From assembly GCA_000002435.2 (NCBI GenBank), contig AACB03000033.1: DNA of 17,765 nt; one strand, 5' to 3'. This DNA comes from Giardia intestinalis. Lineage: Eukaryota. Positions 15,106 to 16,962 of this stretch are shown one piece after another. Numbering within the stretch: position 1 is the stretch's first letter; each line of letters begins with the position of its first letter. The notes below the pieces were generated by a model. The model had not been told where the DNA came from and did not search any database. It saw only the letters and a list, made by a program, of their open reading frames with translations. The position numbers and the translations under genes are program-made.

Positions 15106-16962
15106 GTGATATGCACAGCAGCCAGTGATGGAGTGTGCACTGCTTGTAAGACAGCTAACGGCCTGTTCAAGAACCCAGTTACACCTCAGAAGCCTGGTAG
15201 TGAGTGCATCCTCTGTCATGATGTCAATGGGGCAGATGGATATACAGGGGTGGCTAACTGCGCACAGTGTACCAAGTCAGACAGTAGTCCAGGACCTGCC
15301 ACGTGTACAGAGTGCCAAGATGGATACTACAAGAACTCTCAGACATGTGTCAAATGTAATGAAGCTTGTCTGACCTGCGATGGAAGTGGTCAGAATCATT
15401 GTACATCGTGCCCAGAGGGGAAGTACCTGAAGAGTAATCAATGTGTACAAGATACTGGATGCGATGGAAACACTTATGCTGACCCGGAGTCGGGAACATG
15501 CAAGGCATGTAGTACGATACACGCAGAGTGCACGGCATGCTCCTTCGACAAGGCCACGGGGAAGCCGAAGTGCACTAACTGCGGGACCAATAAGACCCCC
15601 AGGACGGCCCTCGACGGGACATCGACCTGCGTGGCGAAGACGCTTGAAGGATGCGAGGGCGCTGACGAGGCCTTATTTATGAAGGAGGACAAAACGTGTG
15701 CTCTTTGTAGTGATGTGACAGATTCAACTCTTGGTAACGAAGGAAAGGCCAACTGCAAGACATGTACGAAAACAGGAAGTGACAATCCAACCTGCTCAGC
15801 CTGTCTCGATGGATACTTCTTTGATAGTGGTACTAGTACATGTACAGACAAGTGTGGTGATAACTGTGCCACATGCTCTGTTGCTGGTGATCCAAATAAG
15901 TGTGAAACCTGCAAGACTGGATACTTCTTAGTAACTACTACAGATCAACAGGGGAAGAAGTGCGTCCCATGCGATAGCGTAGACGATAAGGGTCGCGAAG
16001 GCTGCAGTGTCTGCTCTAACAACGGTGCTTTCAAGTGCACTGACTGTAAGCCTAACTATCGCAAGGAGGGCAGTACTGGCTCTGTCACATGCACCAAGAT
16101 CTGTGAAGATGATACTGCCTGTGGAGGAACTTCTGGTGCCTGCGATGCAATAGTGATTGATGATAAGGGTGTAGAGCATCATTATTGCTCATACTGTGGA
16201 GAAGCTAATACGTATCCTATAGATGGGAAGTGTAATAGTGCTAAAGCAAATAATCAATGTGATCAAGGTGTATGTACACAATGCACTAACAACTACTTCT
16301 TGTATATGGGAGGTTGTTACAAGGTTGATACAGTACCTGGACAACATATGTGCAAGACAGCAGCCAACGGTGTCTGTACTGCTGTTAATGCCAACAATAG
16401 GTACTTCATAGTCCCTGGGGCAACCAATCAGAATCAGTCTGTATTAGCATGTAGCAACTCCCTTGGCACACTAGTAGGCACTGGTGATACCTCTAAGGCA
16501 TACGTTGGGGTACTCAACTGCTCAGCATGCACGGCCCCAACAGCTCCATCTGAGACTGGTATGACTGCTGCTGTGTGTACAGCGTGTACCAACAACAACA
16601 AGCCCAACCTGGCTGGGAGCGGGTGCTTCGCATGTACCGTTGACGGATGCTCGCACTGTGGAGCAGGCGGTAAGTGCGAGGCCTGTACCAGTAAAGACCA
16701 GAGGCCGAACACAGACGGAACGAAGTGCATCGCCTGCAATATCGACGGGTGCGTCAGGTGCAGCGAGGAGAACAAGTGCGGCCAGTGTGGGGACGACTAC
16801 AGGCTGGAGGGTGAGGCGTGCGTGTCCACCAAGCCCAGCGGGGGCAACAGAAGCGGCCTCAGTACTGGTGCCATAGCAGGGATCTCCGTCGCTGTCATCG
16901 CTGTCGTGGGGGGCCTCGTGGGCTTCCTCTGCTGGTGGTTCGTGTGCAGGGGGAAGGCGTGA
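15106..16962 (+). CDS. vsp: VSP-family protein, unit 9 (type A, 618 aa from GTG; start undefined).
   Basis: Matches unit 3 except for short patches. Sits at a ~15.13 kb offset from unit 1. Confidence 0.87.
   Translation: MICTAASDGVCTACKTANGLFKNPVTPQKPGSECILCHDVNGADGYTGVANCAQCTKSDSSPGPATCTECQDGYYKNSQTCVKCNEACLTCDGSGQNHCTSCPEGKYLKSNQCVQDTGCDGNTYADPESGTCKACSTIHAECTACSFDKATGKPKCTNCGTNKTPRTALDGTSTCVAKTLEGCEGADEALFMKEDKTCALCSDVTDSTLGNEGKANCKTCTKTGSDNPTCSACLDGYFFDSGTSTCTDKCGDNCATCSVAGDPNKCETCKTGYFLVTTTDQQGKKCVPCDSVDDKGREGCSVCSNNGAFKCTDCKPNYRKEGSTGSVTCTKICEDDTACGGTSGACDAIVIDDKGVEHHYCSYCGEANTYPIDGKCNSAKANNQCDQGVCTQCTNNYFLYMGGCYKVDTVPGQHMCKTAANGVCTAVNANNRYFIVPGATNQNQSVLACSNSLGTLVGTGDTSKAYVGVLNCSACTAPTAPSETGMTAAVCTACTNNNKPNLAGSGCFACTVDGCSHCGAGGKCEACTSKDQRPNTDGTKCIACNIDGCVRCSEENKCGQCGDDYRLEGEACVSTKPSGGNRSGLSTGAIAGISVAVIAVVGGLVGFLCWWFVCRGKA

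Follow-up and report, generated by a model that had tools for sequence, protein, structure and literature searches.

Short clustered patches between near-identical units of a Giardia intestinalis pseudo-VSP array suggest templated transfer from VSP paralogs

Antigenic variation in Giardia is accepted to proceed by expression switching among a fixed repertoire, and since 2010 it has been an open hypothesis that recombination makes new VSPs, with the silent arrays serving either as donors or being junk. The closest described systems are the linear vsp and pseudo-VSP arrays of Giardia WB (PMC2996952; PMC7000408). Like the locus described here, a 17,765-nt stretch of Giardia intestinalis DNA (contig AACB03000033.1; hereafter the window), they consist of head-to-tail units with intergenic spacers of 50-240 nt; initiator, start codon and signal peptide are all missing from the downstream members, and some of the units are nearly the same, agreeing at 100% over long stretches. 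Such linear arrays have been hypothesised to be recombination cassettes, and recombination in the vsp 3′ region was shown by GENECONV (Adam 2010, PMC2996952). The published tests in WB relied on 234-657-nt alignments of diverged genes and left individual tracts unresolved, whereas the window allows single patches of 22-38 nt to be told apart in units that are 99% identical, and a recurrent hot spot to be placed. Tandem, signal-peptide-less VSP copies also form the pseudo-VSP arrays of Giardia muris (Xu 2020, PMC7641422), which are transcriptionally silent and whose phylogeny suggests that they have recombined with intact VSPs or undergone segmental gene conversion with them (PMC7641422); they belong, however, to another species, are telomere-adjacent and carry a CRGK tail, whereas the tail in the window is CRGKA. 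Finally, VSPs are enriched in gene-conversion events between assemblages AI and AII (Nat Commun 2025, PMC12669663). There, as is proposed here, transfer at VSP loci was non-reciprocal, and conserved VSP regions were suggested as the source of homology, but those events run between lineages with a median of 3.3 kb, whereas the events in the window cover tens of nucleotides and lie between paralogs within one array or one genome. The kind of event is thus already published (Adam 2010; Xu 2020; Nat Commun 2025). Our addition is confined to two details, the hot spot and how short the tracts are.

Segmental conversion from silent cassettes is also known from Borrelia vlsE, Anaplasma msp2, Neisseria pilS and the chicken Ig pseudo-V genes. 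The mosaic VSGs of T. brucei likewise arise by segmental conversion from promoter-less, truncated open-reading cassettes (PMC13233330) that resemble the units of the window. These systems share with the window short templated patches that are bounded by conserved sequence and lie in variable loops. There, however, a defined expression site receives the patches and switching depends on such a site, whereas VSP switching in Giardia is regarded as epigenetic or RNAi-based, and the patches reported here are seen in pseudo-VSP copies, from which transfer into an expressed gene may follow.

We found nine complete and one partial tandem VSP-like units in the window (n = 10), all on the + strand and head-to-tail, with a period of 1801-1935 nt and about 51-72 nt from the previous stop to the opening of the frame:

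1..1834, + strand: unit 1 (U1), type A, truncated 5′ by the window edge; body ends CRGKA-TGA; one G more than U9, at position 23
1835..3718, + strand: U2, type B; 3′ ~400 nt identical to type A
3719..5653, + strand: U3, type-A reference copy; hot spot in unconverted form at 5194-5239; A at 5361, giving GAGDKC
5654..7579, + strand: U4, type C; transmembrane (TM) form VVVVV at 7507-7519; aa 261-547 identical to complete VSP P0003
7580..9380, + strand: U5, type D; spacer and 5′ region through 8014 (~435 nt) near-identical to U7 with one spacer mismatch; CTG (LS) at 9069-9071; 71-nt tract at the hot spot identical to type A
9381..11195, + strand: U6, type E mosaic; spacer and 5′ ~400 nt match U4/U8; aa 1-425 match VSP S7 (P0026)
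11196..13110, + strand: U7, chimera; spacer and 5′ region through 11622 of U5 type, body from ~11631 of type A
13111..15036, + strand: U8, type C; matches U4 save for 14 substitutions, 5 of the 14 forming a TM patch at 14964-14976 with the type-A form in U8
15037..16962, + strand: U9, type A; U9 and U10 repeat U1-U2 at 99.3% over 2.64 kb
16963..17765, + strand: U10, partial; no substitutions relative to U2, four single-base homopolymer indels at 17091, 17650, 17696 and 17725
3719..3796, + strand: example of an inter-unit spacer; TGA, CTTGGGT-AGTGAAT (polyadenylation-signal-like), CAATGG, degenerate GTGATAG repeats, then GATATGCAC; the following body frame opens at 3791 (WSVICTKAEGG)

The units match Pfam PF03302 (VSP) at E = 5e-39 to 7e-43, above the gathering score, and each contains 24-30 CXXC motifs, 12-13% Cys and one GGCY motif; all nine complete units end in a C-terminal TM segment, GGLVGFLCWWF[V/I], followed by the CRGKA tail and a stop. 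The top database match is a WB protein, VSP XP_001705784.1 of G. lamblia ATCC 50803 (99% identical), and unit types compare with one another at a dN/dS of 0.10-0.34. The frames open at WS[V/E]ICT with no ATG, signal peptide or hydrophobic stretch near the unit starts; an in-frame ATG first appears 49-206 codons downstream of the opening (at 49 in U4, U6 and U8), and the unit starts align with about residue 108 of complete VSPs. Because start signals and a signal peptide are absent, we regard the units as pseudo-VSPs and not as functional VSP genes. Published pseudo-VSP arrays are defined by at least three head-to-tail units with spacers of about 60 to 240 nt (Adam 2010; Xu 2020), and here, too, at least three head-to-tail VSP-like units are joined by short spacers, the downstream members being devoid of start signals. 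By these sequence features, the window is a linear array of putatively silent, 5′-truncated Giardia intestinalis VSP cassettes. The same array architecture occurs in ENA metagenome contig L001, a different array or isolate that is 70-82% identical and informative for spacer architecture only; a metagenome scan returned no relative, and a search for encoding contigs came back empty for two ORFs of the window as well as for P0003 and P0007, two VSPs from NCBI. Antisense ORFs of 100-369 aa were taken as compositional by-products.

Do the near-identical units differ by scattered changes or by patches? A preliminary description of the window had proposed the latter for the type-A units U1, U3, U7 and U9. 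These are indeed 99-100% identical (U7 from alignment column 457 on), and the index case lies in U9:

16503..16540, + strand: index patch in U9; nine substitutions in 16503-16524 (minimum tract 22 nt) and two more at 16530 and 16540
3259-3280, + strand: U2 segment CGTGGGGGTACTCAACTGTTCA, the nearest in-window match to the U9 patch (20/22 nt)

The U9 stretch 16498-16552 reads GCATACGTTGGGGTACTCAACTGCTCAGCATGCACGGCCCCAACAGCTCCATCTG and translates to AYVGVLNCSACTAPTAPS (the peptide first quoted for it extends a few bases beyond 16552), and the variant sequence carried by the patch is CGTTGGGGTACTCAACTGCTCA. The patch is in frame and, in 16503-16524, replaces DG by LN and adds four synonymous changes, while the substitutions at 16530 and 16540 are common to U7. 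Over 1488 aligned nt of type-A body, U9 and U3 differ at 14 positions, of which 11 fall within a single 40-nt interval (0 of 20000 permutations), leaving three in the remaining ~1450 nt. The flanks of the patch match the other type-A copies, for 1.3 kb on the upstream side and 0.4 kb on the downstream side. The patch has in this respect the form expected of ectopic gene conversion, changes crowded together in copies that agree to either side of them.

The 5′ part of the patch had been ascribed to U2, whose positions 3252-3280 include GTACTCAACTG. This likeness holds at seven of the nine changed sites, among them a contiguous 5-nt CTCAA block, and fails at two, as the T at 16506 occurs in no other window unit and the C at 16521 matches only U4/U8. 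In a triplet test with U3 and U2 as parents of U9, all seven U2-like sites are consecutive among 409 informative ones (exact P~1e-12). Since 16506 and 16521 differ from U2, we ruled out U2 itself as the actual donor; the donor is U2-like, no window unit is an exact match for it, and it probably lies outside the window. The patch has no GC bias (four weak-to-strong, AT>GC, versus five strong-to-weak, GC>AT, changes). As 5 of its 11 changes are synonymous, selection on point mutations would not yield it, and by the clustering, paralog-match and triplet tests scattered point mutation does not account for it; the index case fits short-tract templated transfer instead, as the preliminary description had argued.

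Across the type-A copies, variants mostly match paralogs: 16 of the 18 variable sites in the type-A body carry the base of another in-window paralog, where 7.5 were expected (P=2.6e-5). Alignment followed by a GENECONV-style permutation test, the check proposed at the outset, gave many shared tracts of 26-940 nt (global P<0.001), some of which, at 26-71 nt, are common to units that are ~50% discordant elsewhere, with the reservation that permutation tests take sites as exchangeable, so that conserved motifs somewhat inflate run lengths. Two further groups of changes are short:

12678..12696, + strand: hot-spot variants in U7; C at 12678 and A at 12688 common to U9; TG at 12695-12696 as in U5/U6 (P>L)
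11175..11199, + strand: patch in the tail and stop of U6 (FICRGKA, CTCAGG); seven substitutions in 25 nt

In U7, 12676-12700 encodes CTAPTALS, and four of the six differences from U3 lie within 40 nt (18 of 20000 permutations). The form caACAgct, with its A at 12688/16540, is, as previously described, shared by U7 and U9 and absent from all other window units; TAPTAP and TAPTAL occur in other VSPs of the family. The proposed match of U7 to U5 and U6 is borne out by the TG, but this CA>TG change covers only 2 nt (triplet test P~0.013) and could be a tandem-base mutation. The U6 tail patch, missed in the preliminary description, sits within a junction block in which U4-to-U5 and U6-to-U7 are otherwise near-identical. 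The alternatives GAGGKC/GAGDKC (1542/5361/12818/16670) and YFVVPG/YFIVPG (1280, 5099 and others), which had been counted as multi-nucleotide patches, turned out to be single-nucleotide differences and are indistinguishable from point mutation.

The events recur in one place. The loop between AYVGV and GM..A.C is hypervariable across the VSP family, and at or near it lie the U9 patch, the U7 patch and a U2-like SNS>ENP patch, which is the sole difference between U3 and XP_001705784.1. VSP S7 matches U6 for 425 aa and then departs exactly at the hot-spot residue. Moreover, exact segments of 125-287 aa are shared between the units and the complete, signal-peptide-bearing VSPs P0003, P0015 and P0007, as well as the cysteine-rich membrane protein P0016. 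The cassettes may feed expressed VSP genes; what is seen here is static sharing of segments.

Could unequal crossing-over or segmental duplication alone, with variant discordance marking the breakpoints of large reciprocal exchanges and with no short tracts, produce the observed pattern? Large exchanges left their mark. U3-U4 and U7-U8 form a block of 3.4 kb with 20 substitutions, mostly in about five tight clusters, and no indels; U1-U2 equals U9-U10 over at least 2.64 kb; the 3′ part of U4 with the 5′ part of U5 equals that of U6 with U7 over ~560 nt; and U7 joins a U5 5′ region to a type-A body at a single breakpoint within the shared TATGCTGA (11623-11630). The TM segment had been offered as short-tract evidence, in two discordantly distributed forms. 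We found three forms, U5 and U9 carrying gtCgctgtcatcgct, and the discordance falls exactly on the edges of larger duplicated blocks: VVVVV (U4, U6) is the start of the ~560-nt block, and the U4/U8 difference lies at the end of the 3.4-kb duplication. The TM example therefore needs no short tract, because one crossover or long-tract boundary suffices. However, an internal patch with identity on both sides, as in U9, is impossible from a single crossover, the junction block encloses the U6 tail patch, and the 3.4-kb block encloses clusters of 2-5 sites. Unequal exchange is real in this array but by itself does not account for the patches, and we consider it improbable as the sole explanation.

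An assembly or consensus artefact, in which the consensus of a tandem array of 99%-identical units of 1.9 kb would have taken up reads of a paralog (through a collapsed copy or short-read polishing), appears to us about equally improbable. The window does hold probable consensus errors, namely the four homopolymer indels of U10 relative to U2 and the extra G of U1 at 23; none of the public collections searched contains the exact unit proteins (an exact-sequence look-up of seven unit products gave no match in the collection); and higher read-level variation has been reported for VSP regions of the WB PacBio assembly (PMC7000408). The patches, however, are in-frame substitutions and not indels, and the 3.4-kb block has no indels at all; on this ground read-level error, which the preliminary description had named as a possible objection, was rejected. 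In addition, a local mix-up is contradicted by the U9 patch equalling no window unit exactly, and a mixed consensus would switch every distinguishing site, whereas here 22 nt are switched, between 1.3 kb and 0.4 kb of identical sequence; were the source itself a type-A copy with the patch, the patch would be real. Similar patchy differences are found in independent sequences, both in XP_001705784.1, which dates from the Sanger era (2007), and in VSP S7, which was cloned.

That no template was involved, the loop being a mutational or selective hot spot in which independent point or multi-nucleotide mutations (e.g. by an error-prone polymerase) and diversifying selection created a convergent likeness to paralogs, is very improbable: its family-wide hypervariability with a limited vocabulary (e.g. 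DG/EG/LN/YG, TAPTAP/TAPAAL), the single-base variants (1280, 5361, 12528, 16446, 16890), the CA>TG of U7, and the T at 16506 and A at 12688/16540 that match nothing else in the window would fit, but the synonymous changes in U9 beside an almost unchanged body, the CTCAA block with seven of seven informative sites U2-like, and the excess of paralog-matching variants would not.

We thus favour, with a probability of roughly 80%, an array that was built by segmental duplication and unequal exchange and then edited by short templated transfer from VSP paralogs. Clustering, paralog matching, flanking identity and the mosaic block structure are directly visible; the presumed non-reciprocity of the transfer, its probable direction and its enzymology (homologous-recombination repair) we infer, the first two from a single haplotype. 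The units would have arisen by the large exchanges, and later editing would have proceeded by non-reciprocal transfer of short stretches from other VSP paralogs, either as ectopic gene conversion or through template switching in repair or replication, which is mechanistically equivalent. In this process U9, a type-A copy, would have been overwritten over 22 nt or more (16503-16524, and perhaps as far as 16540) by sequence of a U2-like donor encoding ‘YVGVLNCS’. Conserved islands in the diverged paralogs, AAGGCATAYGTNGGGGT on the left and GCATGYACGGCCCCA on the right, as well as CEDxTACGG, GGCY, YADP and the TM/CRGKA tail, may supply sufficient homology for an exchange to begin and be resolved, which would keep tracts short where genes are ~70% identical. 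The tracts would come down again and again in the hypervariable loop that separates AYVGV from GM..A.C. A high rate of ongoing conversion is argued against by sub-assemblage AI isolates, whose VSP repertoires are reportedly strongly conserved (PMC11169602).

We speculate further, and consider it unlikely, that pseudo-VSP arrays are an active archive, in which micro-conversion tracts of ~20-40 nt are repeatedly targeted to a single loop of the surface protein (AYVGV-xx-CxxC-xAPxxxxxx-GM) with conserved recombination ‘handles’ on either side, so that loop variants are shuffled among silent cassettes and into expressed VSPs. If the archive were active, it would provide DNA-level combinatorial epitope diversification on top of epigenetic or RNAi-based VSP switching, as for Ig pseudo-V or vlsE.

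In summary, the window leaves the published picture unchanged and offers a clean, base-resolved example: the tract measures 22 nt or more, its flanks are conserved, the hot spot recurs, and intact VSPs share exact segments with the units. These features could act as markers for ongoing conversion in long-read or time-series data.

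Based on a MAFFT alignment of the tandem VSP-like units (U1-U10, in window order) and window-by-window painting, U1, U3 and U9, together with U7 from alignment column 457 onwards, form type A; U2 pairs with U10, U4 with U8, and U5 and U6 are each single types. The type-A body, aligned over 1488 nt, has only 18 variable sites, 13 of which fall in one 46-nt stretch. The maximum number of differences per 40-nt window was compared with 20000 permutations.

Clustering of differences between near-identical units
U9 vs U3: 14 differences, maximum 11 in one 40-nt window, 0/20000 permutations
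U7 vs U3: 6 differences, maximum 4 in one 40-nt window, 18/20000 permutations
U4 vs U8 (downstream of column 200): 6 differences, maximum 5 in one 40-nt window, 0/20000 permutations

The U9 patch comprises 16503-16524 plus 16530 and 16540, the last two common to U7. Its codons read TAC GTT GGG GTA CTC AAC TGC TCA GCA TGC ... ACA against TAT GTG GGG GTA GAT GGC TGT TCG GCA TGT ... GCA in type A, i.e. five synonymous single-base changes, DG>LN through five nucleotides of two codons, and one amino-acid change A>T. Selection on point mutations is excluded by the packing of the synonymous changes into ~30 nt, given that the remaining ~1450 nt differ at 3 sites. At 16 of the 18 type-A variants another in-window paralog has the same base (7.5 expected; Poisson-binomial P=2.6e-5), and in a 3SEQ-type triplet test (child U9, major parent U3, minor parent U2) all 7 U2-like informative sites were consecutive among 409 (exact P~1e-12). 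The sequences quoted in the preliminary description were found at their coordinates, and its reading of clustered, paralog-matching swaps as short-tract gene conversion is supported for this patch by the 40-nt clustering, the paralog matching and the triplet test. The match to U2 that it gave for the 5' part of the patch holds at the seven informative sites, but U2 as the exact donor is ruled out by 16506 (T, unique within the window) and 16521 (C, U4/U8-like). LN is also present in other VSPs (public Giardia proteins P0009 and P0015) and TAPTAPS in P0007, P0011, P0014 and P0033; the donor or donors probably lie outside the window.

Do such patches recur? A GENECONV-style test, which scored each pair by its longest run of polymorphic sites in agreement and permuted site order 1000 times, identified numerous significant shared tracts.

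Shared tracts (all global P<0.001)
U2-U4: 26 nt
U3-U5 and U3-U6: 53-71 nt, at the hot spot
U6-U7: 55 nt
Other pairs: up to 940 nt

The hot spot is the loop AYVGV-xx-CxxC-xAPxxxxxx-GM, which is hypervariable family-wide with conserved flanks. Independently obtained public sequences show the same patchy differences from window units: XP_001705784.1 equals U3 across 427 aa with the sole difference SNS>ENP (U2's version), located ~45 nt 5' of the hot spot, and the cloned VSP S7 (Q8I8W2) equals U6 at residues 1-425 and then has 16 differences over the following 114 residues, the first of them precisely at the hot-spot residue. A further patch runs through the U6 tail (WWFICRGKA) and stop codon to the CTCAGG that follows (11175-11199), and has 7 substitutions over 25 nt; its donor does not lie within the window. 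At the unit 5' edge, the opening ~30 nt of the body occur in swapped forms (U3 3805-3820 vs U9 15114-15129), U3 having KAEGG (AAAGGCTGAGGGAGGA), as in U4/U6/U8, and U9 having AASDG (GCAGCCAGTGATGGA), close to U2/U5/U7; this is another patch.

The patches are superimposed on larger mosaic blocks.

Duplicated blocks (plus strand)
1-2639 ~ 15130-17765: U1-U2 and U9-U10, 99.3% over at least 2.64 kb
4166-7579 ~ 11623-15036: U3 body-U4 and U7 body-U8, 3.4 kb, 20 substitutions, no indels
7480-8014 ~ 11096-11630: U4-3'/U5-5' and U6-3'/U7-5', ~560 nt, near-identical apart from the U6 tail patch
5654-6053 ~ 9381-9780: U4 and U6 spacer plus 5' part, ~400 nt
U2 3' part and type-A 3' part: ~400 nt

Most of the 20 substitutions in the 3.4-kb block are grouped in about five tight clusters. 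Block breakpoints are within units and coincide with conserved motifs (YADP, TM); U7 is chimeric, with its breakpoint within the shared TATGCTGA (11623-11630). These relations indicate that the array grew via multi-unit segmental duplication and unequal exchange.

Block edges also explain one example that had been taken for a short tract. The TM segment, described as having two discordant forms, has three, the third with a synonymous C in U5 and U9, and no short tract is required: VVVVV in U4 and U6 is the start of the ~560-nt junction block, and the U4/U8 difference is the end of the 3.4-kb block. GAGG/DKC and YFV/IVPG, listed as multi-nucleotide patches, are each a single-base difference. 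The U7 change CA>TG (P>L) does match U5/U6, but it spans only 2 nt (triplet P ~0.013) and may be a tandem-base mutation. For all these examples the conversion reading is weaker.

Less probably, a patch may stem from a chimeric consensus into which an unassembled copy was drawn. U10 (16963-17765) differs from U2 (1835-2639) by 0 substitutions and 4 single-base homopolymer indels.

Indels of U10 relative to U2
17091: GGGG>GGG
17650: GGGG>GGG
17696: CC>C
17725: GG>GGG

Together with an extra G in U1 relative to U9 at position 23, these indels, near the window ends, look like residual long-read consensus error, or pseudogene frameshift decay. However, homopolymer-type errors do not yield in-frame, multi-substitution, paralog-like patches, and the U9 patch equals no in-window unit and is therefore not a local mix-up. 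Read-level error, which would have undone the conversion reading, does not account for the patches, which are in-frame substitutions.

What kind of locus carries these patches? All long ORFs lie on the plus strand, in a head-to-tail array of ten units, nine complete and one partial (1801-1935 nt; ORF scan of the window), each ending in ...GGLVGFLCWWF[V/I]CRGKA-TGA. Numerous antisense ORFs of 100-369 aa (e.g. 1343-2452, 6942-7859) lie opposite the VSP bodies on the minus strand and presumably result from composition and codon bias.

Unit stops and spacers (plus strand)
1834, 3718, 5653, 7579, 9380, 11195, 13110, 15036, 16962: stops of the unit ORFs
3719-3796, 5654-5704, 15037-15099: example spacers, shared layout after each stop

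The products belong to Pfam PF03302 (Giardia variant-specific surface protein family; E~1e-39 to 1e-43), and each unit encodes 24-30 CXXC motifs plus a GGCY motif; the top database match is VSP XP_001705784.1 of G. lamblia ATCC 50803 (99% identity across 69% query coverage) and the remaining matches are Giardia VSPs without exception. Inspection of the reading frames found no start codon or signal peptide in any unit; the frame begins at WS[V/E]ICT..., 51-72 nt past the preceding stop, which aligns with residue ~108 of complete VSPs, directly past their first GGCY motif. The spacers follow a fixed order: TGA, a polyadenylation-signal-like CTTGGGT-AGTGAAT, CAATG[G/T]G (similar to the VSP initiator CAATGTT), 3-6 degenerate GTGATAG repeats, which vary in copy number and place TGA/TAG stops in several frames, and then GATATGCAC. 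An identical layout occurs in an unrelated ENA metagenome contig (L001, 1875-1945). Given this layout and the lack of start codon and signal peptide, the window is a pseudo-VSP array of the linear type reported from G. intestinalis WB (PMC2996952; PMC7000408). The annotation of the spacer in other WB arrays as 'MLYSDSDS...LLFMGGCY' suggests a decayed remnant of an N-terminal CGDGYFLFMGGCY module.

Despite absent start signals, all nine units keep uninterrupted frames of 539-618 codons. dN/dS among unit types lies at 0.10-0.34 and dS is close to saturation or past it; divergence thus accrued under coding constraint, which is not expected of free-drifting pseudogenes and fits cassettes exchanging with, or derived from, functional genes. 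Exact segments of 125-287 aa are shared with other genes, among them the complete, signal peptide-bearing WB VSPs P0003, P0015 and P0007, and conserved motifs (CEDxTACGG, GGCY) mark the ends of several segments.

Exact matches to public Giardia proteins (plus strand, approximate coordinates)
6629-7489: U4/U8 aa 261-547 = P0003 aa 433-719
8394-8903: U5, 170 aa common with P0015
9576-9986: U6, 137 aa common with P0007
2282-2983: U2, 125-143 aa common with P0016 (cysteine-rich membrane protein) and P0011 (array-type product, itself without signal peptide)

The patches are short, in-frame, paralog-like and flanked by identity. They probably arise through ectopic recombination repair, homologous or homeologous, by non-crossover gene conversion or by template switching. 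Short conserved islands would confine the heteroduplex or synthesis tracts where paralogs are ~70% identical, and this confinement would lead to tracts of tens of nucleotides recurring in the variable loop. The block structure probably originates from unequal crossing-over and long-tract events.

Adam et al. 2010 (PMC2996952) reported that vsp genes form linear arrays with up to 10 members and intergenic spacers averaging ~60 bp, in which the initiator is absent from downstream members and some members are near-identical; they hypothesised that members serve as recombination cassettes and evidenced recombination in vsp 3' regions by GENECONV and DualBrothers. For tandem pseudo-VSP arrays of Giardia muris, Xu et al. 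2020 (PMC7641422) found a phylogeny that points to recombination or segmental gene conversion with intact VSPs. A 2025 study found gene-conversion events enriched for VSPs, with a median of 3.3 kb (PMC12669663). In view of Adam et al. 2010 and later VSP studies, the phenomenon and its interpretation are already known; what is added here is a recurrent hot spot and very short tracts (at least 22 nt) resolved to the base.
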